Positions 5,800 through 26,960 of a DNA stretch of 37,926 nucleotides are shown here, one piece after another. This stretch comes from Candidatus Brennerbacteria bacterium (lineage in GTDB: Bacteria > Patescibacteriota > Minisyncoccia > UBA6257 > JACPKE01). The translations under genes were made by a program, and so were the position numbers. The stretch covers positions 1 through 37,926 of the forward strand of contig JACPKE010000004.1 in the NCBI GenBank assembly GCA_016187205.1, read 5' to 3'. Under the pieces are notes generated by a model. The model had not been told where the DNA came from. It made no database searches and saw nothing but the letters and a program-made list of their open reading frames with translations. Positions within the stretch are counted from its first letter, which is position 1, and each line of letters begins with the position of its first letter.

Positions 5800-5868
5800 A
5801 AGATTAGTTGTTTGGTAAGTTCATGAATAAAAATATAAATGATTAATAACCATTTATATTTTTATTAG

Positions 5869-6175
5869 TTGCGGATCGGGGAATCGAACCCCACCCTAAA
5901 GGTTATGCTTGCTACTACGATTTTCATCGCCTCCAAAATTAGGAGTTTGTAGTCTGGACTATACCTTAATCCTGTTTTAACGGGATTCTCGCCATCTAGT
6001 CTCTACGCCTTCTTCATCTCTTCATAATTCAGAGAAACCGAAGCTTGGTTCGGTATTACCTCTCCGTTGTTGGAAGGGGCTCCACCGAGTTTGACGAGTG
6101 TCCATCACTTATTACTAAGTGACGAGCCCATATTAAGTTTTGAGCCTTTCGAGCTCACCAGAGCTCTTATCCGCC
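5869..6175 (-). tRNA. Intron-containing tRNA, predicted anticodon CAT (initiator-like features); exons 6175..6143 and 5907..5869
   Basis: 5' exon is GGCGGATAAGAGCTCTGGTGAGCTCGAAAGGCT and 3' exon is CATAACCTTTAGGGTGGGGTTCGATTCCCCGATCCGCAA. Joined, they give a 72-nt class I cloverleaf with anticodon arm AAAGG-CTCATAA-CCTTT and T-arm TGGGG-TTCGATT-CCCCG. The 5' exon ends in U and the intron ends in G, as group I splicing rules require. Confidence 0.75.
5908..6142 (-). ncRNA. Group I intron (IC3-like), 235 nt, in the anticodon loop between positions 33 and 34
   Basis: Contains core blocks that I recall from the Azoarcus pre-tRNA-Ile intron: GTCAAACTCGGTG, CCAAGCTTCGG, and GATGAAG..GCGTAGAGACTAGATGGC followed by TTAAGG. 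No ORF lies inside. Confidence 0.75.
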
Positions 6176-6264
6176 TTTATATTATATTTAAATACTTTTT
6201 TCTTGTCAAAATTTATGCGCCTCTTTAATTTGCCAATAAAATTTTAGCCATTACAATTAAAATA

Positions 6265-7287
6265 ATGGATATTTTGAAAAATTTGGAAGAAATAAAAAAA
6301 TTGGCTCATCAGGATATTGAGGCGATAAAAACTACGGAAGAATTTGAAAAAGTCCGTGTTAAATATTTAGGCCGGAAAAGCGAGTTAAGCCTGGCCTTGC
6401 GTTCTATTAAAGATTTGCCGATTGAAGAACGGCGTGAAGTCGGTTTTAAAGCTCAGAAGTTGAAACGGGCATTAGAGGAATTATTTTTAAGAAAATTAAG
6501 CGAGTTAAATGTCAAAGGTCAAATGTCAATGGTTAGTTTAGATATTACAAAACCTGGCAAAAAAATTGAATTGGGCCATTTGCATCCGCTTACAAAAATA
6601 TCCCAGGAAATTAAAAATATTTTCATCTCGCTTAATTTTTCCGTTGTTGATGGTCCGCAGGTTGAAATCGAACGTTACAATTTTGACGCATTGAATATTC
6701 CGGCTAACCATTCGGCCAGGGATATGTGGGACACCTTCTGGCTGCAAAGCAGCCAGAAGGTGTCCAGCAGCCAGCTGTCAGCAGCCAGCAGCCGGTTGTT
6801 ATTGCGCACCCACACCAGTCCGGTGCAAATTCGTTATATGGAATCGCATCAGCCGCCTTTTCAGATTATCGCTCCCGGGACAGTATATCGTTATGAAGCA
6901 ACCGATGCCACCCATAGTTTCCAGTTTCAGCAACTGGAAGGTTTAATGGTCGGGAAAAATATTTCTTTCGCTAATTTTAAATATGTTATCAGCGTTTTTT
7001 TGGAAAAATTTTTCAAGCGAAAAATTGAATTTATTCTGCGGCCGAATTATTATCCTTTTGTCGAGCCCGGCGTTGATGTTTATATAAAATGGAAAAATCG
7101 CTGGCTGGAAGTGGCTGGTGCCGGCATGGTTCATCCGAAAGTTTTTGAGGCGGCGCATTATAATCCGCGGGAATGGCAGGGCTTTGCTTTTGGGTTCGGG
7201 TTGGATCGTTTAGCGATGATTAAATATAATATTCCCGACGTCAGGCTTTTTTATTCCGGCGATTTGAGGTTTATTAAACAGTTTTAA
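6265..7287 (+). CDS. pheS: Phenylalanine--tRNA ligase alpha subunit
   Basis: Class II aaRS motifs: HPLT, NFDALNIPANHSARDMWDTFW, LLRTHTSPVQIRYM, APGTVYR, FQQLEG, GAGMVHP and FGFGLDRLAM. Carries a roughly 14-aa insert between DTFW and LLRTHTS. Confidence 0.95.
   Translation: MDILKNLEEIKKLAHQDIEAIKTTEEFEKVRVKYLGRKSELSLALRSIKDLPIEERREVGFKAQKLKRALEELFLRKLSELNVKGQMSMVSLDITKPGKKIELGHLHPLTKISQEIKNIFISLNFSVVDGPQVEIERYNFDALNIPANHSARDMWDTFWLQSSQKVSSSQLSAASSRLLLRTHTSPVQIRYMESHQPPFQIIAPGTVYRYEATDATHSFQFQQLEGLMVGKNISFANFKYVISVFLEKFFKRKIEFILRPNYYPFVEPGVDVYIKWKNRWLEVAGAGMVHPKVFEAAHYNPREWQGFAFGFGLDRLAMIKYNIPDVRLFYSGDLRFIKQF
6729..6765 (+). repeat. 17-bp-stem perfect hairpin inside pheS; the left arm is conserved coding sequence
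   Basis: GGACACCTTCTGGCTGC-AAA-GCAGCCAGAAGGTGTCC, followed by further GCAGCCAG copies at 6767-6774 and 6781-6788. Confidence 0.85.
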
Positions 7288-7302
7288 CTATTTATTATAG
7301 AT

Positions 7303-7707
7303 ATGTCCGAAATTTTAGAAAAAATAGAAAACGGGGAAAAAGAAAAAAATATTCAGACTCAGGAAAAAGAAGTACTGGATAATTTTCATCGCGAAATTCG
7401 GGAATTAAAAGAAAAAGAAGAAAAAGGAGAATTGAAAACAGTGCATTTAAAGGATATTAATCCGGATGAACTGGTGTTTGAAGATATGGCTAAGTGGGAG
7501 CAGGTAAAAAATAACTTAATCATTTTAGATGATTTGGAAGATTTCGCCGCCGAGCTTAGACAAGAAGGTAAAAAGCCGGAAGATAAAGAAGAGATTCCAG
7601 AATCCCGTCTTCTTTTTGCGGCCTTTTTACTTAATAAAGGGGCTGGTTTCAGGCAAATGAAAGCTCAAGAACAAAAGAAAATTTATAAAATGAAAGAAGC
7701 GGCTTAA
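7303..7707 (+). CDS. Hypothetical highly charged (E/K-rich) protein located between pheS and pheT
   Basis: 134-aa ORF tightly packed between pheS (ends 7287) and pheT (starts 7716). No recognised domain. Confidence 0.5.
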   Translation: MSEILEKIENGEKEKNIQTQEKEVLDNFHREIRELKEKEEKGELKTVHLKDINPDELVFEDMAKWEQVKNNLIILDDLEDFAAELRQEGKKPEDKEEIPESRLLFAAFLLNKGAGFRQMKAQEQKKIYKMKEAA

Positions 7708-7715
7708 AAATTAAT

Positions 7716-9794
7716 ATGAAATTTTCTTACACTTTAATAAAAAAAATAGTTCCAGGGCTTAAAAATAAAAACCAGCTTATTGAAGCGTTAAATGAACATT
7801 CTTTTGAAGTTGTTGACGCGGAAGGCGATTCCTTTGATGTTTCGGTTCCGCCCAACCGGTTTTCCGATGCGGCTTCGCATTGGGGAATAGCGCGGGAAAT
7901 TTCCGCGATTTTAAATTTGAAATTAAATATTAAGGAAGTGGGACTTCCTAATATTAGGAAGTCCCACTTCCTAAGAGTTGAGATTAAAGAAAAAAAGCTT
8001 TGCCGGCGTTATATCGCCGAATATTTTACCAACGTTAAAATTAAGCCGTCTCCTGTCTGGATGCAGAAAATTTTAAAAGACTGCGGTTTGCGGCCGATTA
8101 ATAATGTTGTTGATATTATGAATTACGTTATGCTGGAAACCGGACAGCCGTTACACGCTTTCGATTTTGATAAAATCGAAAGCGTTAAAATCAAAAATCA
8201 AAAATCAAAAATCAAAAATATTATAATTCGCACGGCAAAACACAGCGAGGAAATTAAAACATTAGATAATCAGCAATTTATTCTTAATGCCGATGTTCTG
8301 GTTATAGCCGATTCCAAATTTCCGTTAGCGATTGCCGGCGTAAAAGGCGGTAAAAAAGCCGAGGTGGATGCCAAAACTAAAAATATCATTGTTGAAGCCG
8401 CGAATTTTGACGGTCCGAATATTTACAGAACATCAAAATTTTTAAATTTAAAAACAGACGCTTCTTTAAGATTTTCTCATAGTTTAAGTCCGTTCTTAGC
8501 CGGTTTGGGATTGGCAAGGGCGGGAGAACTGCTTATAAAAGAAGGCGCTCGGCCGCAGGCTTATTACGATTCCCATCCGGACGGACATTTGAAAAAACTT
8601 ATTGAATTTAATATTGAAAAATTCAATCATTTAATCGGCGTTAATTTAAGTATTGGGCAGGCGGAGGATTATTTAAAGCGGCTCGGTTTTTTAACGGCTA
8701 AAAACTATAACCTAAAAACTAAAAGTTCATTCTTAGTTGAAGTTCCGCAATTTCGGGCGGATATAGAAAATTCTGAAGATTTGGCAGAGGAAATCAGCAG
8801 GCTTTACGGATATAATAAAATTAAATCTTTGCCTCCCGAGGTGCCGCTTAAAATAGCCAAAACTGATGATATTATTGTTTTTAAAGACCAATTGCGGAAA
8901 ATTTTAACCGGATTTGGCGCTAGTGAAGTTTATAATTATTCTTTTGTTTCAGCGACTGACTCAAGGCTTGGTTTTGATGGTGGTAAACCGGTTGAGCTTT
9001 TAAATCCGATTAGCCCGGCGTTCCAATTTTTGCGTCCGAATTTAGCCATTGGTTTGTTAAAAAATATCAAGGAAAATTTCCGTTTTTTTGAAGAGGCAAG
9101 GATTTTTGAAATAGGGAAAGTTTTTAACAAACGCGATGTAAAACTGCGAATGCGTCCGAATCAACGAATAAATTCAAATGATACTAATATAGAAGGCTGG
9201 CTTGCCAGCCGAAGCATTAGCGAAGGCTGGCGGCTGGGAATCGCGATTGGTTCTAAAAACAAGGAAATTATTTTTGAACTTAAAGGTTTAGTTTCCGAGT
9301 TGCTGAAAAAATCTGGACTGGTTGAATTTTTTATGCGTGATGGCGGCAAAAAATCAGATTTTTTACAAGCTGACGGGGCGTTAATGATTGAATCTGATAA
9401 TTCAATTATCGGATATCTTGGCAAGGCCGGTGATTTTACCAGCGTTTGCGAGATTGATTTGGAGAAATTGCTAAATCTTGTGGAAGGCGAATTGGAATTC
9501 CGGCCATTACCAAAGTATCCGTCTGTAATGCGAGATATTTCAATCCTTGTCAGCCGCGACATAAGAATCGGGGAAATTTTGGAAGCTATGAATTCGCCGG
9601 AAATTCAATATGTTGACGATGTTGATTTGATTGATGAATATTTTAGCGATAAGCTTGGCGGCAACCGCCAGAGCCTGACTTTTCGCGTTGTTTTTCGTTC
9701 GGAAGAAAAAACCCTTGAGGACAGGGAAGTTGATAAAGAATTGGTTAAAATAGTCAATATTTTGAAAGAAAAATTTATGGCTGAAATACGTTGA
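7716..9794 (+). CDS. pheT: Phenylalanine--tRNA ligase beta subunit (short form lacking the N-terminal tRNA-binding domain)
   Basis: B3/4-type region (RYIAEYF..VKIKPSPVWMQKIL..CGLRPINNVVDIMNYVMLETGQPLHAFD), B5-like region, and a C-terminal FDX-ACB-like end (YPSVMRDISILV...QSLTFRVVFRS..KTL). Position directly after pheS supports the call. Confidence 0.9.
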   Translation: MKFSYTLIKKIVPGLKNKNQLIEALNEHSFEVVDAEGDSFDVSVPPNRFSDAASHWGIAREISAILNLKLNIKEVGLPNIRKSHFLRVEIKEKKLCRRYIAEYFTNVKIKPSPVWMQKILKDCGLRPINNVVDIMNYVMLETGQPLHAFDFDKIESVKIKNQKSKIKNIIIRTAKHSEEIKTLDNQQFILNADVLVIADSKFPLAIAGVKGGKKAEVDAKTKNIIVEAANFDGPNIYRTSKFLNLKTDASLRFSHSLSPFLAGLGLARAGELLIKEGARPQAYYDSHPDGHLKKLIEFNIEKFNHLIGVNLSIGQAEDYLKRLGFLTAKNYNLKTKSSFLVEVPQFRADIENSEDLAEEISRLYGYNKIKSLPPEVPLKIAKTDDIIVFKDQLRKILTGFGASEVYNYSFVSATDSRLGFDGGKPVELLNPISPAFQFLRPNLAIGLLKNIKENFRFFEEARIFEIGKVFNKRDVKLRMRPNQRINSNDTNIEGWLASRSISEGWRLGIAIGSKNKEIIFELKGLVSELLKKSGLVEFFMRDGGKKSDFLQADGALMIESDNSIIGYLGKAGDFTSVCEIDLEKLLNLVEGELEFRPLPKYPSVMRDISILVSRDIRIGEILEAMNSPEIQYVDDVDLIDEYFSDKLGGNRQSLTFRVVFRSEEKTLEDREVDKELVKIVNILKEKFMAEIR
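7933..7972 (+). repeat. 40-bp perfect palindrome in pheT made of two inverted GGAAGT-GGG/CCC-ACTTCC hairpins
   Basis: AGGAAGTGGGACTTCCTAAT|ATTAGGAAGTCCCACTTCCT. It encodes ..EVGLPNIRKSHFL.. and shares its 13-nt core with murD 4226-4258. Confidence 0.85.
8187..8220 (+). repeat. 7-bp microsatellite (AAAAATC, about 4.9 units) inside the pheT coding sequence
   Basis: AAAATC AAAAATC AAAAATC AAAAATC AAAAATA, encoding KIKNQKSKIKNI. Confidence 0.9.
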
Positions 9795-9865
9795 CGTTTT
9801 AAAAAACTTAAGGTATTATTTTTTCCAGTAATTTGAATTTAATTTAATAAGGAAAGGAGAATGAA

Positions 9866-10702
9866 TTGTACAATGAAAAATATAAGATTTGCGAAGGCAA
9901 GTCTAAAATTATCTGGCAAGATCCTAATGATTCAAGTCAGGTTTTAATTCAAAATAAGTCTGTTATTACGGCCGGCGACGGAAAAAAACGGGATTTCTTG
10001 CCAAACAAGGACGAGATGGCGACTGAAACTACTTGTAATGTATTTCATTTTTTACATACCCATGGAGTAGCTACCCATTACCTGAAGCGTGCAAACAGCA
10101 TAACTTTTTTGGCCAAGAAAGTTTCAATGATTCCAATTGAAGTAGTTATCAGAAAGATAGCTTTTGGTTCTTATCTTAAACGGCATCCCGAGGTTCCCGA
10201 AGGCGCTTTGTTTTCTCCGTTAGTGACAGAATTCTTTTTAAAAGACGATGAGAACCATGATCCGTTGATGATATGGGAGGAAAATGAAAATAAATTTATA
10301 CTTTGCAATTCCCAAGAACCATTGGGGGATGGATGGATTCGTCTTTTTGATCCGTCATTATTAGTTAACGGTTCGCTTATTCCTAAAAATACTCTAGAAA
10401 TTCAGAATATCCGCAAGCTGGCAGTGGAAGTTTTTTGGCTGCTGGAAAAAGTTTGGGCTGATTTGCAGGTTCAGTTGGTTGATTTAAAAATTGAAATGGG
10501 GTTTGATTCAGAAACCGGAAATTTATTGGTTGCTGATGTTATAGACAATGATTCTTGGAGAATTTGGCCCCAAAGCGATAAGTTTCAGATGAAAGATAAA
10601 CAGGTTTATCGTGATTTTAAAGAAATTACGCCGGAAGCAATAAAAGCTATTCAAGAAAATTATAAATGGGTTTCTGAAATAACATTTCGATTTAAGTATT
10701 AA
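9866..10702 (+). CDS. purC: Phosphoribosylaminoimidazole-succinocarboxamide (SAICAR) synthase
   Basis: Block-by-block match to E. coli PurC as I recall it: EGKSKIIW, ITAGDGKKRDFLPNKDEM, MIPIEVVIRKIAFGSYLKR, FFLKDDENHDPLM, LVDLKIEMGF, DNDSWRIW and MKDKQVYR. TTG start 5 nt after GGAAAGGAGA. Confidence 0.85.
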   Translation: MYNEKYKICEGKSKIIWQDPNDSSQVLIQNKSVITAGDGKKRDFLPNKDEMATETTCNVFHFLHTHGVATHYLKRANSITFLAKKVSMIPIEVVIRKIAFGSYLKRHPEVPEGALFSPLVTEFFLKDDENHDPLMIWEENENKFILCNSQEPLGDGWIRLFDPSLLVNGSLIPKNTLEIQNIRKLAVEVFWLLEKVWADLQVQLVDLKIEMGFDSETGNLLVADVIDNDSWRIWPQSDKFQMKDKQVYRDFKEITPEAIKAIQENYKWVSEITFRFKY

Positions 10703-10957
10703 TTTAAAAATATAATAATTATAGAAAGGCGGTGATGATGTATGATAATTGCTATAATTGGGATTATTTTTGCATTCATATTTTGTGTAAAGAGATAACC
10801 ATTTTGATTTTTGGACCCTAAAAATAATCGCAGATTAAGATAGTTTGTGATAAAAAATTGTTAAATTGAGCCGGTTTTTCTTCAGAGAATCCGGCTTTTA
10901 CTTTTGAATAAATAATGTTAATATATTAAGTACCCGAGCAGGGTATTTTTATTAAAA

Positions 10958-12937
10958 ATGCCGAAAAAACCAGTTAAAAAAGAAGAAAAAAAGCCAGTAA
11001 TTCCGGCGGAAAAATCCGAAAAACAGCCGTCTTACACCGCTAAAGACATTTATGTTTTGGAAGGTTTGGAGCCGGTTCGCAAGCGTCCCGGTATGTATAT
11101 TGGTTCAACCGGAGTTGACGGTTTGCATCATTTGATTTGGGAAGTTGTTGATAACAGCATTGACGAGGCAATGGCCGGATACGCCAAAAATATCCGCGTT
11201 GAGCTTTTATCCGCCTCCGGTGGAAAGAATTACCACGTGGCTGTTAGCGACGACGGCCGCGGCATTCCGGTTGAAATTCACGCTCAAACAAAAAAATCCG
11301 CCTTGGAAACGGTAATGACAACGCTTCATGCCGGCGGTAAGTTTGGCGGGGAGTCATATAAAGTTTCAGGGGGCCTGCATGGCGTCGGAGTTTCGGTTGT
11401 CAATGCTCTATCAAAATGGCTGCGCGTTGAAGTGTGCCGCGACGGACAATTGTATTCCCAGGAATACGAAACAGGAAATCCGAAATATAAAGTAAAAAAG
11501 GAAAATAAATGCCAGAAAACCGGCACTAAAGTTATTTTTGAGCCGGACCCGAAAATTTTCAGCAAAATTGAATTTGACCTTAAAAGAATTCTTGACCATC
11601 TTCGCCAGCAAGCGTATCTCACCAAGGGCATCAGGATTGAATTTATTGACGAGAGAACCAGTCAGCCGTTTTATTATTCTTTTTATTTTGAAGGCGGTCT
11701 TTTATCGTTTATAAAATATCTTCAGGCCGGCCGCCAGATAATCCATGACAATATTTTTTACGTTCATAAAAATTACGAAAATATAGAAGTGGAAGCGGTC
11801 GCGGTTTATAAGGAAGATTTGGAAATGCAGGAAATGACTTTTGCTAATAATATTTACACTCCTGACGGCGGTATGCATTTGACGGGTTTTCGTTCCGCCA
11901 TCACCAGAAGTTTGAATGATTATGCCTGGAAAGAAGGCTATTTAAAGCAAAAAGACGAGAATTTGACCGGCGATGACGTGCGGGAAGGGCTGACTGTCAT
12001 AGTTTCCGTGAAAATAAGGGAACCGCAGTTTGAAGGCCAGACAAAAGCGCGGCTTGGCAATCCGGAAGCGCGGACTGCCGTTGAATCCGTTGTTAGCGAG
12101 GCTTTAAAAGAATTTTTGGAAAAGCATCCGGCTGACGCCAGAAAAATAATTGAAAAATGTCTGCTGGCGGCCAAAGCCCGAAAAGCCGCTAAAGCCGCCA
12201 AGGACACGGTATTGCGCAAAGGCGCTTTGGAAGGCATGACTTTGCCGGGAAAACTTGCCGATTGTTCTTCGCGCGATCCCGAAGAATCGGAACTTTTTAT
12301 AGTGGAAGGCGACAGTGCCGGCGGAAGCGCCAAGCAAGGACGGGACCGGCGCACTCAGGCAATTCTGCCGCTTAAAGGGAAAATTTTGAATGTTGAAAAA
12401 GCGCGTATTGACAAGATGTTATTAAACAAGGAAATTCGGGCCTTGGTGGTGGCTCTTGGCACCGCCATTGCCGACGAGTTTGATATTGAAGGGCTTAGGT
12501 ACCACAAAATTATTTTAATGACCGACGCCGATGTTGACGGTTCGCATATCCGCACTTTGCTGTTAACTCTTTTTTACCGGTATTTTCCCAAAATTATAGA
12601 AAACGGCAATCTTTATATCGCTCAACCGCCGCTTTACAGAGTGCAAAAAGGCAAGGAAATTATTTACGCTTATTCCGATAATGAAAAAGAAAAAATTCTG
12701 AAAAAGTTTGATTCTGACGGCGCGAACATCCAACGTTATAAAGGCTTGGGCGAAATGAATCCGGATCAGTTGAGTGATACTACGATGAATCGTGAAACGC
12801 GGATATTAAAAAAAGTGGAAGTTGGCAATGCCGCCGAAGCGGACAGGCTTTTTGATGTTTTGATGGGGGAAAACGTTGAACCGAGGAAAAACTTCATCCA
12901 ATCCAGGGCCGAAGCGGTTAAAAATCTTGATGTTTAA
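10958..12937 (+). CDS. gyrB: DNA gyrase subunit B
   Basis: LEGLEPVRKRPGMYIGS, HHLIWEVVDNSIDEA, DDGRGIP, GGLHGVG, the Toprim motifs EGDSAGGSAKQGRDR and PLKGKILNVE, IILMTDADVDGSHI, and a C-terminal QRYKGLGEMNP. Confidence 0.97.
   Translation: MPKKPVKKEEKKPVIPAEKSEKQPSYTAKDIYVLEGLEPVRKRPGMYIGSTGVDGLHHLIWEVVDNSIDEAMAGYAKNIRVELLSASGGKNYHVAVSDDGRGIPVEIHAQTKKSALETVMTTLHAGGKFGGESYKVSGGLHGVGVSVVNALSKWLRVEVCRDGQLYSQEYETGNPKYKVKKENKCQKTGTKVIFEPDPKIFSKIEFDLKRILDHLRQQAYLTKGIRIEFIDERTSQPFYYSFYFEGGLLSFIKYLQAGRQIIHDNIFYVHKNYENIEVEAVAVYKEDLEMQEMTFANNIYTPDGGMHLTGFRSAITRSLNDYAWKEGYLKQKDENLTGDDVREGLTVIVSVKIREPQFEGQTKARLGNPEARTAVESVVSEALKEFLEKHPADARKIIEKCLLAAKARKAAKAAKDTVLRKGALEGMTLPGKLADCSSRDPEESELFIVEGDSAGGSAKQGRDRRTQAILPLKGKILNVEKARIDKMLLNKEIRALVVALGTAIADEFDIEGLRYHKIILMTDADVDGSHIRTLLLTLFYRYFPKIIENGNLYIAQPPLYRVQKGKEIIYAYSDNEKEKILKKFDSDGANIQRYKGLGEMNPDQLSDTTMNRETRILKKVEVGNAAEADRLFDVLMGENVEPRKNFIQSRAEAVKNLDV
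11210..11233 (+). repeat. Single-hairpin relative of the 30-bp element, in-frame in gyrB (SASGGKNY)
   Basis: TCCGCC-TCC-GGTGGA (6-bp stem with one G-T pair), followed by AAGAATTAC. Homologues that I recall (E. coli, B. subtilis GyrB) are shorter just before the DDGRGIP motif. Confidence 0.6.
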
Positions 12938-12951
12938 GGCAGGGCAGAGGG

Positions 12952-12980
12952 TTGACCGTTTTTCATTTTTGAGATTTAAT
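12952..12980 (+). promoter_or_regulatory. Candidate sigma70-type promoter for secE-nusG-rplK
   Basis: TTGACC, 17-nt spacer, TTTAAT, ending 10 nt upstream of the secE ATG. This would give a nearly leaderless mRNA. Confidence 0.3.
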
Positions 12981-12990
12981 AACAATTACT

Positions 12991-13179
12991 ATGTTTAATA
13001 AATTAACAATGTTTTTGCAGGAATCCAGGCGTGAACTTCAGCGCGTTAATTGGCCGAGCAGGGAGGAAACTATCCGTTATACCGCGGTGGTCATCGGTCT
13101 TTCGTTGGTGTTTGCTTTTTATCTTGGCGGCCTGGATTTTGTTTTTACTTATTTAATCAGAACCTTTCTTGTTAATTAA
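12991..13179 (+). CDS. secE: Preprotein translocase subunit SecE
   Basis: 62 aa, with ESRRELQRVNWPSREE followed by a single TM helix. Sits immediately upstream of nusG, the conserved order. Confidence 0.9.
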   Translation: MFNKLTMFLQESRRELQRVNWPSREETIRYTAVVIGLSLVFAFYLGGLDFVFTYLIRTFLVN

Positions 13180-13734
13180 ATGATACAATCTTCAACAACC
13201 GAAAAAAAACAGCGCGCTTGGTACGCGCTTCACACTTATTCCGGCTATGAGGACGCAGTGGAGCGTTATTTGAAGCAGCGCGTTGATTCTTTGGAAATGA
13301 ATGATAAAATTTTTAATGTTATAGTTCCTAAAGAAAAAAAAATCAAGGTAAAAAATGGCAAGAGGCAGATGATTGAAGAAAAAATTTATCCGGGTTATGT
13401 TTTGGTGGAGATGATTTTAACCGAAGATTCATGGTATGTTGTAAGAAATACGCCAAGAGTTACCGGTTTTGTCGGGCCCGACAGCACCAGCCCTACTCCG
13501 CTTTCAAAAGACGAGGTTGATGTTTTGCTTGGCCGGATGAAAGCCGAAGAGCCGAAATTTAAAGTTGAACTTCAGGTCGGCGAAGCGGTTAAGATAATAG
13601 ACGGCCCGTTTAAGGATTATGACGCTAAAGTGCTGGAAGTTAATGAAGAAAAAGGCAAGGTCAAGGTTTCCGTTCCGATTTTCGGACGGGATACTACGGT
13701 TGAGATTGATTCTTTGCAGGTTAAAAAAATCTGA
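13180..13734 (+). CDS. nusG: Transcription termination/antitermination factor NusG
   Basis: WYALHTYSGYEDAV NGN start, YPGYVLVEM, and a C-terminal KOW (GEAVKIIDGPFKDYDAKVLEV..KVKVSVPIFGRDT.VEI). Confidence 0.95.
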   Translation: MIQSSTTEKKQRAWYALHTYSGYEDAVERYLKQRVDSLEMNDKIFNVIVPKEKKIKVKNGKRQMIEEKIYPGYVLVEMILTEDSWYVVRNTPRVTGFVGPDSTSPTPLSKDEVDVLLGRMKAEEPKFKVELQVGEAVKIIDGPFKDYDAKVLEVNEEKGKVKVSVPIFGRDTTVEIDSLQVKKI

Positions 13735-13812
13735 AATGCGACATGTAAAATGCGACAAGTGTAATGAAAAAAACGCGCTATTTCGTTTATTTTATTGAGT
13801 TCCAATAAATTA

Positions 13813-14238
13813 ATGGCTAAACTAATCAAAACAACTTTAAAATTGCAGATTGAAGCCGGGAAAGCCAATCCGGCGCCGCCGATTGGACCGGCTCTTGGCC
13901 AGCACGGCGTTAATATTCAGGATTTTTGCAAGCAGTTTAACGACGCCACCAAGGATATGACCGGGGATGTTGTTCCGGCGGAAATCACTATTTATCAGGA
14001 CAGGACTTTTGATTTTAAACTGAAAACTCCTCCGGCTTCGGCTTTGCTTAAAAAAGCCGCTGGCGTTGAAAAAGGATCCAAGGATATTTTAAAAAGCAAA
14101 GTCGGCAAGGTTTCCAGAGAAGATATCAGGAAAATAGCCGAACGCAAAATGATTGATTTGAATACCGATAATGTTGAAGAGGCGGAAAAAATAATTGCCG
14201 GCACCGCAAAATCAATGGGGATTGAGGTTATGGATTAA
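13813..14238 (+). CDS. rplK: 50S ribosomal protein L11
   Basis: [42 protein letters not shown] prefer the ATG at 13813 over the upstream TTG at 13795 given in the ORF track, because L11 proteins normally begin MAK. Confidence 0.93.
14125..14237 (+). repeat. 113-bp segment of the rplK 3' end, duplicated at 18851..18963 (1 mismatch)
   Basis: Direct comparison of the two stretches, ATCAGGAAAATAGCCGAACGCAAAATGATTGATTTG...GGGATTGAGGTTATGGATTA. The only difference is ATAATTGCC versus ATAATCGCC. Confidence 0.95.
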
Positions 14239-14374
14239 ATTTTAAGTTTATTATAATTTAAGAATTTGCGTTGTTTTTAAATAAAAAATTTCCATACCCG
14301 TTGCTTAATGATTTTTGACCAAAATAATGATAGAATAACGGTATGATGAATATTTTTTAAACAATCTATAAATT

Positions 14375-15091
14375 ATGACAGATCAAAAAGTTGTTGATTA
14401 TATAAAAACTTCCTTGGCGACTGGAAAACCGAAGGAGAGTATTTATAAGGAATTACTAAATAGCGGCTGGACGATTGAAGCAATTGAAAAAAATTTCCAA
14501 TCTCTCAATATTGAATCGGAGAAAGCTGACACGCAAAAGAGAACAATCAAGATTATTTTGACGATTGGCGCAATTCTTATTGGCGCCGGTATTTTTTCTT
14601 TTGTGGCGGCGAATTGGGAAGAAATATCTCGTGTTCTTAAGGTGTCAATACTTATAGCGACTATGTTGGGTTTTTATATTGCCGGCTGGCATTTGAAGGA
14701 AAAAGCCGGCCTTGTCAAAACTGGCGCGGCATTTATTCTTCTTGGAGCAATCACTTACGGAGCTAGTATCTTTCTTATCGCTCAAATGTTTAACATTCGC
14801 TCTAATTGGCCCGATGGTTTTATTATTTGGATGGCGGGGACGCTCCTTATGGCGTTTAGTGCCGATATTTTTTCTCTTTTTTATCTTTCTATAATTACGG
14901 GAATCATTGCAGTCGCGGGAACACCGTTTACGCTTTTTGCGCCTCTTTTTGGTTCAAGGTCGCTCTTTAGCACTAGCTCTCAATTTCTTATGACGCCTTC
15001 TTTATTGCTTCTCGCGGCGGCGGCAATCGCTTTCATAAGCGGCTGGCTGGTTCGAAAAAAAATTCCCGATGAATTAAAAGATTATTATTAA
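14375..15091 (+). CDS. DUF2157-like membrane protein
   Basis: Soluble N-terminal segment, then TM helices with the FSFVAANWEEISR motif that I associate with DUF2157. The gene neighbourhood includes a GDYXXLXY protein. Confidence 0.6.
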   Translation: MTDQKVVDYIKTSLATGKPKESIYKELLNSGWTIEAIEKNFQSLNIESEKADTQKRTIKIILTIGAILIGAGIFSFVAANWEEISRVLKVSILIATMLGFYIAGWHLKEKAGLVKTGAAFILLGAITYGASIFLIAQMFNIRSNWPDGFIIWMAGTLLMAFSADIFSLFYLSIITGIIAVAGTPFTLFAPLFGSRSLFSTSSQFLMTPSLLLLAAAAIAFISGWLVRKKIPDELKDYY

Positions 15092-15096
15092 AAAAT

Positions 15097-16269
15097 ATGA
15101 TTTTAGCAATTTTATTTTTTGTTTTTCTGCCGTTTACCGCTTTTGCTTCCCACAACACTTCTTTTTTTGGAATACCTTATTTAACTTATCTCATTTGGCC
15201 CATTCTTATTGTTGCAGTTATCATCGGCTTTGTAACTTGGCGGCAAAGAAAGCGGGGCAAAACTGTGGCGCTTGGAAAGAATTGGTATTTGCAATTGGCG
15301 CTTTCGCGGGAAGATTTAGTAAGTCAATTTTTGCTTTCTCTGGCCGTGCTGTTTTTCGGACTGGCTCTTATGTCGTTCAACCGCCAATTAGGAGATCCAT
15401 TTTCATGGAAAACGATTATTCTTATTACTTCGCTTGTTGGCGTAATAATTGCCTATTTTTTAAAAGCGATCTATCCCCTTATCCTTGGTTTGGTAGGGAT
15501 GGGAATTTGGTGGATTGGCAAAGATATAGAATGGATTCAAGCCGTCCATGTTAAGCCAGTCTTCATTCTGGCGAGCGTTATTTTTAAAATGCTTTTCCTC
15601 TATGTTATTGGTCGTTTGCATGAGCAAAAAATGCGCTGGAAACGTTTTGCGATGGTTTATTTTATTCTTAGTTTAGCGGTGATAACCGTTATTCTTTTTA
15701 GTTTTTCAACAAAAATCGGTCTTTCCGAGTTCCAATCGCTCTTTAAGGGAGAATCTCTTTTTGGTTCTTGGCAAATTAGTGTTTCTTTGTTTGTTTTTAT
15801 TGTTCTTTTTCTTGGGGCGCTTTTTTATGCGGTGACAAAAGGAGTAGTCGCGAAAAGCGAGGTTGCCGCTCTTATTGTATTAGCGAGCGTATTTACTGCT
15901 ATTATGTTTATTCCGGTGGGCGAGCTCTTTATCAAACCAACGACGGGATACTATTCTAGTTATAATAATCCTCTTTCCGGCGCAGGTATATTTTGGGCCG
16001 CTCTCTTCAATTTCCTTCTTGTTTTTGAACTTTTGGGGATTATTTTTCTGGGATATGGCCGACGGGAAGGCTGGCTGGTTAATCTCGGCGCTTTTGGTTT
16101 CTTTGCTTTTATTATGTTTAAGTATTTTGATTGGTTCTTTACTTTTCTTGATAAGAGTGTTTTTTTCATCGGCGCCGGCATCCTTCTTTTTGGTGTTGGC
16201 TGGCTTATGGAAAAAAGCCGCAGGAAAATGATTTTATCTATGAAGGGAGAAGTTTCTCCCGCTGAATAA
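15097..16269 (+). CDS. Multi-pass integral membrane protein (DUF4401-like by context)
   Basis: 390 aa, about 10 or more hydrophobic helices, 5 nt after the previous gene and 4 nt before the GDYXXLXY gene. The family assignment is by synteny only. Confidence 0.55.
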   Translation: MILAILFFVFLPFTAFASHNTSFFGIPYLTYLIWPILIVAVIIGFVTWRQRKRGKTVALGKNWYLQLALSREDLVSQFLLSLAVLFFGLALMSFNRQLGDPFSWKTIILITSLVGVIIAYFLKAIYPLILGLVGMGIWWIGKDIEWIQAVHVKPVFILASVIFKMLFLYVIGRLHEQKMRWKRFAMVYFILSLAVITVILFSFSTKIGLSEFQSLFKGESLFGSWQISVSLFVFIVLFLGALFYAVTKGVVAKSEVAALIVLASVFTAIMFIPVGELFIKPTTGYYSSYNNPLSGAGIFWAALFNFLLVFELLGIIFLGYGRREGWLVNLGAFGFFAFIMFKYFDWFFTFLDKSVFFIGAGILLFGVGWLMEKSRRKMILSMKGEVSPAE

Positions 16270-16273
16270 TTTT

Positions 16274-17572
16274 ATGGAATCAACAAAACAAGTAAAATTT
16301 ATTATCGTCGTTGGGCTTCAAATCTTTGTTCTTTTCGCGATAATTATTTATAAAACCGCGATTCTCGCGAGCGGAACGGACATTGTATTAAAGCTTCAGC
16401 CAGTAGATCCAAAAGATTTTTTGCGGGGCGACTATGTCAGTTTGCGCTACGACATTAATAACATTGACTTAAATAAAATCTCGGTTGAAGGGGAAAAAAG
16501 TTTTAAAACAGGAGAAAACATTTATGTCAGTCTTAAAAAAGAACAAGATTATTTTTCTGCGGAAAAAGCCAACCATCAAAAACCAATGAGTAATTATTTT
16601 ATTAAAGGGATGGTTAGCAGGGGCGGTGACGGCGCTATTTCTGTTCAGTATGGCATTGAATCTTATTTTATGCCCGAAGGGAATGCCCGCGATCTTGAAC
16701 AGCTTACTTTTGGAAGGCAAAATAATACTCTTCTTGTTGGAGTAAAAGTTGACCGTTCCGGCAATGCTTTAATCAATAAAATAATTATTGCCGGCAAGGA
16801 AATTGACGCGTCTAATTTTAGAGAAGTTGCATCAAGTGTGGAATATTACAGAAACCAATCCCTTGGGAATGTGGAGGTTGCCTCAAGAGACGCGAAGCGC
16901 CAGGCAGATATACGGCAATTTGTTACCGCTATGGAGCTTTGCTACGACAGTACTGATTGCGGCGAAGGAACTAAAAAATATTTGACAAGCGCGACGATGC
17001 CAACAAGTATTGATATTGATAACAGTCCTATATTGTTTCAGAAGATACCGTCCGATTCATCAAGGAATACCCCTTATAACTGGATTAGTAATTTAGGTAA
17101 AGATTATGGGTATTGCGTATACGCTGTTTCAGAAAGTTTCCCTGCGACTTATTATATTGGATCGTCAAAGGGGTATAAAACAGAAACTATAGAACCAAAG
17201 ACACTAGAGGACTGCGGAGTTAAAAAATCTATTGCTCTTGTGGGTGGCTACATTTTTATTGATAGTAACAAAAATGAAGTTTTTGATAAGGGGGATGGTC
17301 TCTTTCAAGATATCAATGTAAGTTTAAGTAAGGCGGAAATTCTGAAAACTGGTGGTGGATTTACAAAGGGAACATTAAATCAGGTTAAACCTGATGCAAA
17401 AGGATATTATCAATTCGAGATTTTTGACGCGGGGAACTATAAAATTAGCCCGATATTAATTTCTAGATCCATAGGAGCGGGTACTAGTGGTAGCAGTAAG
17501 GATAAGGGATATTTTGAAATCAAAGGGGGTGAGAAAATTAACAATTATAATTTCTTTATTTTCTTCTATTAA
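16274..17572 (+). CDS. GDYXXLXY-domain protein fused to a pilin-like segment and a CnaB/SdrD-B-like domain
   Basis: N-terminal TM helix, then LQPVDPKDFLRGDYVSLRY...YGIESYFMPEG (GDYXXLXY family signature). A mid-region SRDAKRQADIRQFVTAMELCYD resembles the segment following the hydrophobic helix of type IV pilins. The C-terminal GGYIFIDSNKNEVFDKGDG..INVSL....GYYQFEIFDAGNYKI resembles CnaB/SdrD B repeats. Confidence 0.7.
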   Translation: MESTKQVKFIIVVGLQIFVLFAIIIYKTAILASGTDIVLKLQPVDPKDFLRGDYVSLRYDINNIDLNKISVEGEKSFKTGENIYVSLKKEQDYFSAEKANHQKPMSNYFIKGMVSRGGDGAISVQYGIESYFMPEGNARDLEQLTFGRQNNTLLVGVKVDRSGNALINKIIIAGKEIDASNFREVASSVEYYRNQSLGNVEVASRDAKRQADIRQFVTAMELCYDSTDCGEGTKKYLTSATMPTSIDIDNSPILFQKIPSDSSRNTPYNWISNLGKDYGYCVYAVSESFPATYYIGSSKGYKTETIEPKTLEDCGVKKSIALVGGYIFIDSNKNEVFDKGDGLFQDINVSLSKAEILKTGGGFTKGTLNQVKPDAKGYYQFEIFDAGNYKISPILISRSIGAGTSGSSKDKGYFEIKGGEKINNYNFFIFFY

Positions 17573-17632
17573 ATTGCGGGGAAAATTACTAACTATAATT
17601 TCGCCGTGCAGTTTTAAGAAAATTTCTCAGGA

Positions 17633-18673
17633 ATGAAAACTCAATTTATTAAGATACTCATTTTTTTATTTTTGGGTTTGATTTTGGTTTCATTACCGTT
17701 TGTTATAAAATATTTGTTTAAAGTAAAACAATCTGCAAATCTTAAAAATGAGGTTATGATAACCGAAACGAGTCCTGAACAGGAAAAACTCTTTGGCGAA
17801 GACAATGTTAAAAAGGAAGCAATTTTAGAAAAAAATGAAATAAATAAAGATAAAAGCGAGAAGTTGGTGGAACCAATCATCAAAAAAGAGGTGATTTTTA
17901 AGACAGCGCTACAAAACAATATCAAGAAAGTTATAATTATTGAAGTTGCGTTATTTGACACAAAATATGCAGATAATACTAATTATATAGACAAAACTTT
18001 TCTTGAGTTAGTTAATGCGCCGACGGCGTATTCTATTGTAAAAGGAGCCGGTGGGCAGGAATTGAGATTTGATTCTTTGCACGGTATCGACGACTGGTTT
18101 GCGCAAGAGTATAAAAGAATTACTGGTTATGAAAAAGAAGTTTTTGATATAAAAATCGTAGGACCCTTTAGCGTGTCGGAGCAACCTCCTCATAAACGGA
18201 TGAATGATTCCTGCTTAATTCTCCAGCCATATTTTCAAAGGGTTGCGATTGACAACGGTGTAGATATTTCAAAATACGACATTGCCGCGTTTGTCTTTTT
18301 TGATGATTTTACGCGAATAACGCCAGATCGTTTAGAGCAAAGCTTTTGGTCATGCCAAACAAGCGGCTCGTCTTATAATATGGTTTTTGTTGATTTCAAT
18401 GTCGCCTTTTTTTCAGGAATTAGCGTGGGGTTTATAGATTTAGCGCATGAATTATTTCATGGTTTAGGCGCTTATGACACATATGATGGTTGGAGATGCA
18501 TTGAACCCGATGGCATTCCTGAGCCGAATAAAGAGCCTAAATATCCCCAAAGTAAAGCTTGTTTAATGTGCAGAAATATTATGATTGGTGAAAATGCCAG
18601 TAGAGCCACTAACTCTCTTGATGAAGTAATGATTTGCAAGAACGAAGCCAAGGCGGTAAAATGGACGAAGTGA
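17633..18673 (+). CDS. Secreted or anchored putative zinc metalloprotease (HExxH)
   Basis: N-terminal hydrophobic helix (ILIFLFLGLILVSLPFVI), an AHELFHGLGAYDTYD (HExxH) motif and a Cys-rich C-terminal part. I cannot assign a family. Confidence 0.5.
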   Translation: MKTQFIKILIFLFLGLILVSLPFVIKYLFKVKQSANLKNEVMITETSPEQEKLFGEDNVKKEAILEKNEINKDKSEKLVEPIIKKEVIFKTALQNNIKKVIIIEVALFDTKYADNTNYIDKTFLELVNAPTAYSIVKGAGGQELRFDSLHGIDDWFAQEYKRITGYEKEVFDIKIVGPFSVSEQPPHKRMNDSCLILQPYFQRVAIDNGVDISKYDIAAFVFFDDFTRITPDRLEQSFWSCQTSGSSYNMVFVDFNVAFFSGISVGFIDLAHELFHGLGAYDTYDGWRCIEPDGIPEPNKEPKYPQSKACLMCRNIMIGENASRATNSLDEVMICKNEAKAVKWTK

Positions 18674-18733: not shown

Positions 18734-18970
18734 ATGGTTAAAAAATTATTCACAATCGAAGGAATGCATTGCGGCGCTTGCGCCGCCGGCATTGAGAAAG
18801 GTTCCGGCGACGTTTTAAAAAAAACAGCTGGTAAAATCAGCAGGGAAGACATCAGGAAAATAGCCGAACGCAAAATGATTGATTTGAATACCGATAATGT
18901 TGAAGAGGCGGAAAAAATAATCGCCGGCACCGCAAAATCAATGGGGATTGAGGTTATGGATTATTTTTAA
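18734..18970 (+). CDS. Chimeric ORF: HMA-like N-terminal fragment fused to a second copy of the L11 C-terminal domain
   Basis: [16 protein letters not shown] carries the GMxCxxC heavy-metal-associated signature. It is followed by [60 protein letters not shown], which corresponds to L11 residues from about 84 to the end. The last 113 bp are near-identical to rplK. It may be a pseudogene. Confidence 0.45.
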
Positions 18971-19035: not shown

Positions 19036-20715
19036 ATGGAAGAAAGATTGAATAATTTTCAGCAATTATCCGAATTAGGACTGCCTGATTTTCCGGCGGA
19101 AGAATGGAGCGACGAAGAACGTTTTTTGTTGGAACCGTTTTTTACCAATCTTGACGGCCATGTTACGGTGATTCGCAATTTGCCGCCAGAATTGGTAGGC
19201 GCGCTTTGTTCCAAAGCCAGCCGGGCCACCGGTTCTTTGATACGGGTATTTCTTAATGAATATTTAAAGCCGATTTTGCAGGGCGAAGATAAAAAGCTGG
19301 TTAAAGATTTGAAAGCGTTTGTCGCGATGTTTAGAGAATACAGTCCCGATAAAGTTTTGAATAACCAGCTGGCCAGGAAATTTTATGTTAGATGGCTTGC
19401 CGAGTTTGGCGATGATTCAATAGCGCAAATGACCGGCGTCCATGTTAATTTGCTCTATGTTTCACAGGTGGCGATGAAATTTATTGAAGACCAGCGGATG
19501 GGTTTGGAACCGATTGAAAAATCCACAAGATACGTGAATTACGGACAGAAGGTTGGCGGCCGGTATTTGTATTTTATACCGTTTTCTGAGTGGAATACCG
19601 TCTCAGAACTTGATGATAGTAAACTTTATAAAGAAACCCTTGATAATCTTTTCAATGTTTATAACTTGCTCGTGCCAAAGCTAACAGAATGGCTTAAGAA
19701 AAATTATGAAGAAAAATCTTCAGTTCTTGAGAAAAAAGCTTTTGACACGTTAAGAGGTTTATTGCCGATGGCGACTGTCAGTCAGGTTGCTTTTAGGGGC
19801 AATGCCCAGGCCTGGGAATATCTTGTTAATCGCACGGCGCGTTATCCGTTAAATGAGGTTAGGTTAATAAGCTCAGCCATCAGAGAGGAATTAAATTTAG
19901 AAATACCGTCTTTAATGGCAAGACTTGCGGAACCGAAATCGCAATTCTATCAAGCTTATTTGGCCGGAAAACGGGAAAAGGCAAAAAAGATAGCCAAAAC
20001 ATATGAATCATCAACGTTTGTTTACGCCCCTGATGTTGCCTTGATTGAATACGATTCTGACGCCGAAGATAAAATTTTAGCCGGAATTATGTTTCCTTAT
20101 TCCAATGAATGTTGGGGCAATATTATTGAATGGGTTAAGAGTTTGAGTTATAGCGAGAAAGAAAAAATTTTTGATGAGTATTTTACCGCCAGAACCGAAC
20201 GCTGGTATAAAGTATCCAGGGCTTTTGAAAATTCTTATTTGCGTTTTGAGATAGTTGTGAATGCGGGCGCTTACAGGGATTTGCACCGGCATCGGATGCA
20301 GACTCAAGACAGGCAGTATTTTACCATAAATCACGGTTATGATGTGCCGGAGGAGGTTGTTTCCGCCGGAATGGAAAAGGAATTCAGGGCGGCCTTGGAT
20401 TCGGTTAAGCCTTTGTTTGTTATGTTGAATGAAAAATACGGCCCGGAACTGGCTCAATACGTTGTGCCAATGGCTTACAGAATGAGATTTTATCAGTGGC
20501 AGAATTTCCGGCAGTTTTTCTGGGAAAGCGAATTGCGGACTATTTCGCAGGGCCATCCGGATTATCGCATGATTGAACAAATGAAATTCAAACTGGTGAA
20601 AGAAAAGTTTCCTTTATTGGCAAAATATATGAAAGTTGACACAAAAGATTATTTTTTTGCCAGAAGAGGCGTTGAAGAAAAGATTAAGGCAAAGACGGAC
20701 AAGCTGTTAAAGTAA
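19036..20715 (+). CDS. thyX: FAD-dependent thymidylate synthase, tandem-fused (pseudo-dimeric) long form
   Basis: The C-terminal half has YRDLHRHRMQTQDRQY (RHR block) and FFWESELRTISQGHPDYRMIEQ. These parallel T. maritima ThyX RHRIASYNELSGRY and [28 protein letters not shown] as I recall them. The N-terminal half has degenerate equivalents (FIEDQRMGLEPIEKSTRYV and AFRGNAQAWEYLVNRTARYPLNEVR). Confidence 0.75.
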   Translation: MEERLNNFQQLSELGLPDFPAEEWSDEERFLLEPFFTNLDGHVTVIRNLPPELVGALCSKASRATGSLIRVFLNEYLKPILQGEDKKLVKDLKAFVAMFREYSPDKVLNNQLARKFYVRWLAEFGDDSIAQMTGVHVNLLYVSQVAMKFIEDQRMGLEPIEKSTRYVNYGQKVGGRYLYFIPFSEWNTVSELDDSKLYKETLDNLFNVYNLLVPKLTEWLKKNYEEKSSVLEKKAFDTLRGLLPMATVSQVAFRGNAQAWEYLVNRTARYPLNEVRLISSAIREELNLEIPSLMARLAEPKSQFYQAYLAGKREKAKKIAKTYESSTFVYAPDVALIEYDSDAEDKILAGIMFPYSNECWGNIIEWVKSLSYSEKEKIFDEYFTARTERWYKVSRAFENSYLRFEIVVNAGAYRDLHRHRMQTQDRQYFTINHGYDVPEEVVSAGMEKEFRAALDSVKPLFVMLNEKYGPELAQYVVPMAYRMRFYQWQNFRQFFWESELRTISQGHPDYRMIEQMKFKLVKEKFPLLAKYMKVDTKDYFFARRGVEEKIKAKTDKLLK

Positions 20716-26045: not shown

Positions 26046-26960
26046 TTATAATTTTTCAATCGTCTTTTTAATTCCTGTTTCAACGTCTGTTTTTGCTTTC
26101 CAGCCGAGTTTTTTTTGGGCTTTTTCTCCTGATATCGCTATTCTGTATACTTCGCCTTTGCGCGCCGGAGAAAAAACCGGCTTTCCCTGAAAGTTAACGG
26201 CTTTGGCTGTCAGATTAAATATTTTTTTATCGCTGGTTTCTTGGCCAGAACCAAGATTTATAATTTCGTTAACGCATTTTTTGAGCGTAATGATATTGGC
26301 ATTAACAATATCGTCAATATAAACATAGTCCCTGGTTTTTGTTCCGTTGCCGTAAATTTTTGGCTGGAGGCCGGATTTCATCAGTCCGCCGAAAATCGCC
26401 ACTACCCCGGCTTCGCCTTTTGGATTTTGGCGCGGTCCGTAAACATTGGGATAGCGGAATATCAGATAATTAAACCCGTAAACGCGGGAGTAAAATTTTA
26501 TCATTTCTTCTCCCAGTAATTTTGAAAGTCCGTAAGGAGAAAGGGGAATTGCCGGAGTTTTTTCATCAGCCGGGATTTTGTCCGGCTGGCCGTAAATCGC
26601 GCCGCCGGTTGAAGAAAAAATAAATTTTTTTATTTTTACCAGGCCGCCGGCAACCAGAACATTGGCGGTTCCCAGAACATTGGTTTGGTAAGTCGGAATC
26701 GGATCGCGAAGCGATTTCACTACTTCGGCAATGGCGGCATGATGGTTCACGATTTCCGGCCGTTCTTTTTTGAATATTTTTTCAACGGCGTTTTTATCGC
26801 GGATATCGGCTTTGTAAAATTTCGCTTTTTTGTTGATATTGCGGCGGAAGCCGGTAGCGAGATTATCAATAATTACTGCGCGATGGCCAAGATTTATGTA
26901 TTTATCTGTTATATGGCTGGCAATAAAGCCGGCGCCGCCGGTGATTAGTATTTTAGCCAT
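26046..26960 (-). CDS. NAD-dependent epimerase/dehydratase (GalE-like SDR)
   Basis: ILITGGAGFIASHI (GxxGxxG) and the YGLSKLLGE (YxxxK) catalytic motif. Overlaps the end of the upstream sugar transferase by 8 nt, consistent with an operon. Confidence 0.85.
   Translation of the reverse strand: MAKILITGGAGFIASHITDKYINLGHRAVIIDNLATGFRRNINKKAKFYKADIRDKNAVEKIFKKERPEIVNHHAAIAEVVKSLRDPIPTYQTNVLGTANVLVAGGLVKIKKFIFSSTGGAIYGQPDKIPADEKTPAIPLSPYGLSKLLGEEMIKFYSRVYGFNYLIFRYPNVYGPRQNPKGEAGVVAIFGGLMKSGLQPKIYGNGTKTRDYVYIDDIVNANIITLKKCVNEIINLGSGQETSDKKIFNLTAKAVNFQGKPVFSPARKGEVYRIAISGEKAQKKLGWKAKTDVETGIKKTIEKL

Follow-up and report, generated by a model that had tools for sequence, protein, structure and literature searches.

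A lineage-specific insertion next to rplK carries a conserved three-gene membrane unit and a metzincin-like gene in a Candidatus Brennerbacteria contig

Why should four envelope genes stand next to the ribosomal protein gene rplK in a bacterium with a reduced genome, and do the four belong together? The question is raised by a contig of 37,926 nucleotides (nt) from Candidatus Brennerbacteria bacterium (JACPKE010000004.1, assembly GCA_016187205.1), which was analysed over its whole length and is called the window here. A first-pass annotation, made from the letters alone, had read the four genes at 14375-18673 as a single envelope system inside the secE-nusG-rplK locus and had taken that position to imply a selected function. 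We find that they lie in a 4.7-kb block that is a lineage-specific insertion between rplK and a cluster of thymidylate genes, and that the location next to rplK is incidental. The block joins a conserved but uncharacterised trio of genes to a fourth gene, whose link with the trio is peculiar to this window. The four open reading frames (ORFs) of this cassette are called p1, p2, p3 and p4 in 5' to 3' order, and L001-L125 are the fetched loci and contigs of relatives with which the window was compared. The features on which the argument turns are the following.

12991-13179, upstream of the cassette: secE
13180-13734, upstream of the cassette: nusG
13795-14238, +: rplK (ribosomal protein L11), intact, with both Pfam L11 domains complete; the upstream insertion boundary
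14056-14242 (core 14125-14237), +: direct repeat, copy 1, the 3' end of rplK
14375-15091, +: p1, DUF2157 membrane protein (Pfam PF09925)
15097-16269, +: p2, polytopic membrane protein with about 11 segments (hydropathy and homologues)
16274-17572, +: p3, membrane-anchored GDYXXLXY protein, long form (Pfam and AlphaFold2 model)
17633-18673, +: p4, predicted membrane-anchored metzincin-like protein (family motif and profile match)
18734-18970, +: 78-residue chimeric ORF, a 16-residue HMA/CopZ-like start (GMHCGAC) joined to an in-frame copy of the L11 C-terminus
18782-18968 (core 18851-18963), +: direct repeat, copy 2; the downstream insertion boundary
19036-20715, +: thyX-like gene (Pfam Thy1), with which the thymidylate cluster begins; the native flank on the downstream side

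All four cassette genes are on the + strand and encode proteins of 238, 390, 432 and 346 amino acids (aa), and the spacers of 5 nt (15092-15096), 4 nt (16270-16273) and 60 nt (17573-17632) agree exactly with what had first been annotated. Upstream the order is gyrB, secE, nusG and intact rplK, whose product shares 93% identity with the L11 of L040, the closest relative. Downstream the thyX-like gene is followed by folA on the minus strand, the dCMP deaminase gene and tmk. Because no further ribosomal protein gene (rplA, rplJ or rplL) comes after rplK in the window, the cassette is at the downstream edge of the ribosomal locus and not within it, as had been supposed. The rest of the window is housekeeping DNA, and the named best matches of its proteins are in Parcubacteria, Sungbacteria, Colwellbacteria and other Patescibacteria metagenome-assembled genomes (MAGs).

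The evidence for an insertion comes from relatives. Seeding a metagenome scan with NusG gave 80 related loci whose NusG is 50-93% identical; of the contigs of sufficient length to reveal gene order, most conserve the gyrB-secE-nusG synteny. None of p1-p4 was found in any of these 80 loci, nor in 27 thyX loci, by tblastn or by profile hidden Markov models (HMMs). In the relatives that have rplK there, thymidylate genes come after it, with tmk 132 nt later in L063 and folA about 290 nt later in L080, and a similar junction of rplK to tmk, folA or thyX without the cassette is present in L042/L099, L097/L116 and L103. Since relatives join these genes directly, the ancestral order was rplK and then the thymidylate (dTMP) cluster, and the 4.7 kb are an insertion. 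Two further comparisons were uninformative: the thyX relatives, of which the best is at most 59% identical and none has rplK nearby, and the 40-nt tail after rplK in L040, compared in order to distinguish an empty from an occupied site, which matched neither flank in the window better than shuffled controls did (p = 0.14 and 0.61).

The boundaries of the block point to how it may have arrived. A direct repeat of 187 nt, overlooked in the first-pass annotation, brackets the cassette and is the only long repeat in the window; its 113-nt core has a single mismatch, at 14196, which leaves exact runs of 71 and 41 nt, and the identity ends at the second base of the rplK stop codon. Over the 69 nt before the core the two copies are 68% identical and both are L11-like coding sequence; here copy 1 is 91% identical to L040, while the identity of copy 2 to rplK of the sampled relatives does not exceed 64%. 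The chimeric ORF that contains copy 2 matches Pfam Ribosomal_L11 with 67.8 bits, HMA with E 6.7e-4 and NCBIfam CopZ with E 0.004. Unlike thyX it has no Shine-Dalgarno-like sequence upstream, and it is probably a recombination scar. Within the chimera the two families meet at AAG(I/V)EK, a stretch that they have in common, and this suggests that recombination took place at microhomology. With the end of rplK duplicated and the cassette present in 0 of the 80 related loci, the argument from a conserved position to a selected function no longer holds.

The most likely origin would be a single-crossover (Campbell-type) integration of circular DNA that carried an rplK-like 3' fragment, because the geometry is that of an intact target whose partial copy, at the far boundary, is a mosaic. 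Such a crossover would regenerate an intact rplK and leave the displaced copy behind as a scar. A foreign origin of the rplK 3' core was considered and rejected, the divergence from L040 along the gene being within the background range; so was a foreign source for the diverged 69 nt of copy 2, for which no sampled lineage matches better than the host.

The arrangement resembles the integrative islands of the tRNA/tmRNA type: the target gene is intact, repeats of its 3' end form the boundaries with a partial copy at the far one, and the block is absent from the site in relatives. It differs from these islands in four respects. The insertion has no integrase or mobility gene, its target is a ribosomal protein gene, its composition is not atypical, and its repeat, which is long (113 nt near-identical and 69 nt diverged), is joined to an HMA-like start.

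Two observations on the upstream genes of relatives were made along the way. In L039, L041, L054 and L062 gyrB is found by tblastn in two pieces 1.2-1.6 kb apart, broken after residue ~68 or ~457, which suggests an intein or intron that gyrB in the window lacks. Many relatives (L048, L050, L056, L058, L069, L070 and others) have gyrB-secE-nusG but no rplK within 8 kb after nusG, so that the nusG-rplK link is itself not fixed in the clade.

What, then, was inserted? The first three genes were examined in seven complete and two truncated Patescibacteria contexts, in Pantoea and in natural fusions. They occur as three separate genes in the same order in L001, L003, L119, L120 and L123; L008 and L121 have p1 and p2 as one fused gene, and the truncated contigs L009 and L122 fit this order as far as they go. 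On Pantoea megaplasmids a fused DUF2157/DUF4401 gene of 725-735 aa overlaps the GDYXXLXY gene by 8 nt, and in Brevibacillus all parts of the trio are in one chain of 710 aa. Further fusion proteins are found among the homologues of p2 (P0038, P0039, P0056, P0087 and P0111) and of p3 (P0154-P0161). The spacers within the trio are 0-5 nt or the genes overlap, with the exception of L119, which has 36 nt between p1 and p2. Each context examined has different flanking genes, from which we conclude that the trio is self-contained and relocates in genomes. The annotation of the trio as a recurrent, tight neighbourhood with no described function was therefore correct, since the genes are in the same order or fused in all relatives examined.

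The family assignments of the three proteins fared unequally. For p1 the match to DUF2157 (PF09925) is clear, with 113.4 bits against a gathering cut-off of 32.4 over profile positions 25-141 of 146. It is the only Pfam family that p1 matches; LiaF and LiaI families gave no match. Hydropathy and a model of a natural fusion divide the protein into a soluble helical N-terminus of about 55 aa and some six hydrophobic segments, and the genes that take the place of p1 in L001, L003, L119, L120 and L123 are 50-58% identical to it.

The middle protein, p2, is polytopic as annotated, with about 11 hydrophobic segments by hydropathy, but the proposed assignment to PF14351 (DUF4401) did not hold up for p2 itself, which has no Pfam or NCBIfam match and does not reach PF14351 even at E <= 0.1. 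It has 146 homologues, 40-51% identical and all from Patescibacteria-type sources, some of them fused to DUF2157. In an alignment of the p2 family (A5; 81 sequences, of which 75 are unfused p2-type proteins) 23 of the 81 sequences match PF14351 weakly (E <= 0.01, best 4.2e-6), and with a PGAP-named DUF4401 protein of Pantoea hhalign gives an alignment of the last 43 columns only, corresponding to the last transmembrane hairpin, with E 0.036. By its position and this weak similarity p2 appears DUF4401-like and remotely related to that family, short of demonstrated membership. The model of a natural DUF2157-p2 fusion has a predicted local distance difference test score (pLDDT) above 90 in the p2-like part and 45-80 over the DUF2157 helices. 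This membrane platform found no fold match in the PDB (best E 0.21, TM-score at most 0.24), and a profile search of it against PDB sequences returned nothing. The p2 of the window is also about 22 residues longer at the N-terminus than its homologues of 365-370 aa (15097-15170), and the extra part adds a hydrophobic, signal-like segment, MILAILFFVFLPFTAFA.

The third protein fully bears out its annotation. Its match to GDYXXLXY (PF14345) scores 120.2 bits (cut-off 27) and extends over residues 16-169 and over positions 1-152 of the 153 in the profile, and the literal motif GDYVSLRY is present. In an alignment of this family (A4) D53 is invariant, and G52, Y54, L57 and Y59 are at least 90% conserved. 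The AlphaFold2 model of p3 (pLDDT 84.3) predicts four parts in succession.

Residues 1-33: N-terminal transmembrane helix
Residues 16-169, nt 16319-16780: GDYXXLXY domain, beta-rich
Residues 182-305, nt 16817-17188: middle domain, a 44-residue helix and a small sheet
Residues 321-431, nt 17234-17566: beta-sandwich of the SdrD-B/CnaB type

The terminal domain is predicted, from profiles and from the model, to be of the SdrD-B/CnaB type known from adhesin stalks. The C-terminus of p3 scores 28.4 bits with Pfam SdrD_B, just under the cut-off of 29.7; the p3 family profile matches the SdrD sequence with E 1.3e-8; and Foldseek aligns the domain with SdrD (4jdz, E 3.7e-6) and with a CnaB2 domain (8bdw, TM-score 0.67 on the target). 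The likeness to the SdrD B-repeats and CnaB domains of Gram-positive MSCRAMM adhesins and pilins involves the last 110 residues. In contrast to those adhesins, p3 has the domain once, lacks both an LPXTG sorting signal and a ligand-binding A region, and its B-type domain sits on a GDYXXLXY membrane protein rather than on a wall-anchored adhesin. Most GDYXXLXY proteins are 170-190 aa long, or 243 aa in Thermodesulfobacteriota-type proteins, and the full long form, with an extension of 260 aa, was found in only five other proteins in a database of 5.8 billion sequences.

Two other likenesses of p3 were dismissed. Foldseek matches to Zcp/DUF4198 have probabilities of 0.3-0.6 and a root-mean-square deviation of ~20 Å, as generic beta-sandwich similarity might give. 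A type IV pilin or type II secretion G-like (T2SS-G-like) reading of residues ~182-305 found nothing in Pfam at E <= 10 (residues 178-318); the resemblance to pilins lies in the motif RDAKRQADIRQ and, in the model, in a long helix followed by a small sheet.

The trio belongs to a neighbourhood that is already known, the DUF2157/DUF4401/GDYXXLXY neighbourhood, which is catalogued but uncharacterised and which is represented by Pantoea sp. MT58 (IAI47_RS21205-RS21210), Pantoea vagans pPag3 (PVAG_RS01710-RS01705) and the fusions of Brevibacillus invocatus. The likeness lies in the gene order, in the tight or overlapping coupling, in the natural fusions, and in p1 and p3 being above the Pfam cut-offs. 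The window differs in that p2 comes from a Patescibacteria-specific family below PF14351, in that its GDYXXLXY protein has 432 aa compared with ~170-190 and carries the added helix/sheet and CnaB-type domains, in that a metzincin-like gene is appended, and in that the whole block is a recent insertion. The window is an example of a conserved unknown and not a new kind of system, the variant features being the divergent middle protein, the long adhesin-like GDYXXLXY protein and the appended gene. In the two Pantoea loci, L124 (Pantoea vagans pPag3) and L125 (plasmid of Pantoea sp. MT58), a dTMP kinase gene lies 0.7-1.2 kb past the pair and is followed by genes for a flavin adenine dinucleotide (FAD) oxidoreductase and eptA, an echo of the dTMP cluster in the window that is probably a coincidence.

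The fourth gene had been annotated as a putative secreted zinc protease. Its product has one N-terminal hydrophobic anchor by hydropathy and a conserved C-terminal domain of about 245 aa, so that a membrane-anchored zinc metallopeptidase is a plausible prediction given the anchor and an invariant motif.

Residues ~100-345, nt 17930-18667: conserved domain of p4
Residues 272-284, nt 18446-18484: zinc motif of p4, HELFHGLGAYDTY

The extended metzincin motif HExxHxxGxx(H/D) is present as HELFHGLGAYD. H272, E273, H276, D282 and M312 do not vary among 50 aligned members of the family, and the conservation of G279 is 90% or more, the consensus being HExxHxLGAxDxY...KACxMC; the invariant Met312 follows D282 by 30 residues, which is the position expected of a Met-turn and may represent one. 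An exhaustive search gave homologues in 303 representative clusters, and a word-indexed search gave one. The family matches no curated Pfam, NCBIfam, PHROG or PADLOC family, and some of its members match Pfam Reprolysin_3/4/5 weakly. The nearest solved relative of the family profile is snapalysin (1c7k, E 3.4e-4), aligned through the zinc motif over some 47 residues only (profile positions 176-222 and 1c7k residues 55-100); homology over the whole catalytic domain of snapalysin (M7) was not found. Other metzincins, of the reprolysin-like kind and archaemetzincin (2x7m), are likewise among the closest known proteins. Snapalysin (MEROPS M7, PDB 1c7k/4hx3) and p4 align residue for residue in HExxHxLGxxDxY, with Asp as the third zinc ligand, whereas the p4 domain is about 245 aa compared with 132 aa in snapalysin and has in addition a conserved, Cys-containing C-terminal part (...KACxMC...IC...) and a membrane anchor. 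We regard the p4 family, on these patterns of sequence, as a putative uncurated family of metzincin-like proteins.

Neighbourhoods in relatives do not bear out the view that the protease is conserved together with the trio. It stands beside the trio in this window only, and a search of ~1 Mb of related loci with the p4-family HMM gave no member. The sole close homologue from the word-indexed search adjoins a ParE toxin gene with no trio nearby, and in the nearest long-form relatives (L008 and L122) the trio is followed by genes that have no relation to p4. Because p4 is not linked to the trio elsewhere, the four-gene system resolves into a conserved trio and a lineage-specific passenger.

Taken together, the best joint explanation of the data, in which we have moderate confidence, is a lineage-specific insertion of single-crossover origin that carries a trio forming a membrane complex with a role at the surface. 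In such a complex, p1, p2 and p3 would associate in the cytoplasmic membrane, the polytopic p1 and p2 acting as a platform that holds or serves p3, and the beta-rich GDYXXLXY domain would be the extracytoplasmic working part. The single N-terminal transmembrane helix of p3 and its CnaB-type domain are the basis for placing it outside. In this lineage the outer part would be lengthened by the helix-plus-sheet domain and the SdrD-B/CnaB stalk domain, and p4, a predicted metzincin with a membrane anchor, would be encoded in the same orientation 60 nt downstream. In view of the stalk and the adjacent protease, the version in the window most likely has its role at the cell surface, where it would display, bind or process material from the surface or from a partner cell. 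The speculative surface or attachment role put forward with the first annotation thus gains some indirect backing from the SdrD-B/CnaB domain of p3.

Several points weigh against this explanation. A complex of the three proteins is suggested by gene order and fusions only, and scans for promoter and terminator consensus were at chance level and so uninformative on co-transcription. The GDYXXLXY profile matched no solved structure, the full-length Foldseek search of p3 being dominated by its CnaB domain so that the GDYXXLXY domain was not searchable alone; and as neither the GDYXXLXY protein nor the polytopic proteins have a solved relative, nothing anchors a biochemical role. Most members of the family are short (170-187 aa) and have no stalk, and a reading in terms of surface adhesion may for that reason hold for this variant only. 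As to the insertion, no integrase, recombinase or transposase family was found by Pfam in window ORFs of at least 110 aa, and the guanine-plus-cytosine content (GC) of the cassette, overall and at third codon positions (GC3), is within one standard deviation of that of the window genes, an ordinary composition. No functional study of the trio was found in the literature searched. The only mentions, both incidental, are the co-purification of a GDYXXLXY protein with FtsX and EnvC in Fusobacterium nucleatum (PMC5915739) and the grouping of DUF2157 with the LiaI-LiaF-TM domain in comparative genomics (10.1101/2020.09.24.301986).

Of the alternatives, the one that survives best is nevertheless unlikely: the trio could be a module for homeostasis or transport of metal (copper) or thiols, and the HMA-like scar could then derive from a copper chaperone or ATPase gene that travelled with it. 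This would fit L001, where the trio has a DUF411 gene on one side and, on the other, genes for a CsoR-type repressor, DsbD_TM, Redoxin and an HMA-type P-type ATPase, and it would give a meaning to the GMHCGAC motif with which the 78-aa ORF just past the cassette opens. However, there are no metal genes near the trio in the other six complete contexts or in Pantoea, the HMA match covers 17 residues and is below the Pfam cut-off, the HMA-like start is unlike the N-terminus of CopA in L001, and no transporter fold was recovered. The copper/thiol cluster that includes the trio in L001 spans 3194-15556 in one Patescibacteria MAG and also holds SfLAP and DUF1573.

The insertion itself could also be an artefact, in which the assembler threaded between rplK and thyX what is in fact a separate circle of 4,726 bp, or DNA from another strain or location. 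Direct repeats around a segment are formally equal to a circle and an empty site. Look-ups of the exact window proteins gave only short Logan contigs from two runs, and these contigs (k=31) end at 14154, which is k-1 bases into the exact repeat. Breaks at that point are what is expected if the repeat is real in the reads, but they do not prove linkage, because a circle and an empty site give the same graph. The contigs of the closest relatives (L039 and L040) also stop in or just after rplK, that of the 93%-identical relative at the equivalent spot. On the other side, the two copies differ at one core base and strongly in the preceding 69 nt, as two resolved copies would, and the 113-nt repeat is shorter than ordinary reads; even a circle would still carry its rplK-derived attachment fragment, so that a link to the rplK site remains. 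Given copies that differ in and near the core, and a core shorter than a read, we consider misassembly quite improbable.

We give just as little credence to a more elaborate version of the favoured explanation, in which the trio would be a portable surface-display machine of ultra-small episymbionts, with the long-form stalk mounted on the platform and the whole moving with the protease as an integrase-less circle that recombines at rplK. A defence or phage origin was rejected, p1-p4 having no match in PADLOC or PHROG, and the p4 family has no relatives in viral contigs.

More doubtful still is an envelope-stress sensor in which DUF2157 would act like the sensory transmembrane domain of LiaI/LiaF; both incidental mentions in the literature would suit it, but p1 belongs by Pfam to DUF2157 and to no LiaF/LiaI family, and genes for PspA/LiaH, two-component systems or sigma factors are absent beside the trio in the contexts examined. 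Finally, that the four genes are a native operon whose place in secE-nusG-rplK reflects a selected, locus-linked envelope function is equally improbable and largely refuted: the common strand, the tight spacing and a trio that is real and conserved speak for it, but the cassette is missing from all 80 related loci, of which several run from rplK directly to tmk or folA, a duplicated rplK 3' end brackets it, and elsewhere the trio is found in unrelated contexts with p4 never adjoining.

The trio is of interest as a conserved unknown that extends from Patescibacteria to Enterobacterales and Bacillota, with natural fusions and no solved structural relative. As a self-contained, relocatable unit of three genes it narrows what experiments must address, and it is present in tractable hosts, namely Pantoea sp. 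MT58, Brevibacillus and Fusobacterium. The rare long form with its adhesin-type stalk hints that the GDYXXLXY domain works outside the cell. The fourth gene adds a family of metzincin-like proteins, uncurated and made up of ~300 sequence clusters, whose HExxHxxGxxDxY motif is of the snapalysin type, and the insertion, which duplicates the rplK 3' end with no integrase, is a small and clear example of envelope-gene gain in reduced genomes.

Elsewhere in the window, a group I intron (Rfam RF00028, 59 bits, cut-off 50) is found at 5931-6152 on the minus strand, upstream on that strand of a very AT-rich ORF at 5218-5799 (-; GC 0.28, GC3 0.155, no Pfam match) that could be a gene of the homing-endonuclease type; a tRNA-Met gene (5055-5126, -) is nearby. 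A tandem array of about 10 copies of the heptamer TATCTAG occupies 28293-28389. The intergenic region that holds it separates two divergent genes, one for a sugar transferase (26953-28293, -) and one for a DsbA-like thioredoxin (28388-29098, +).

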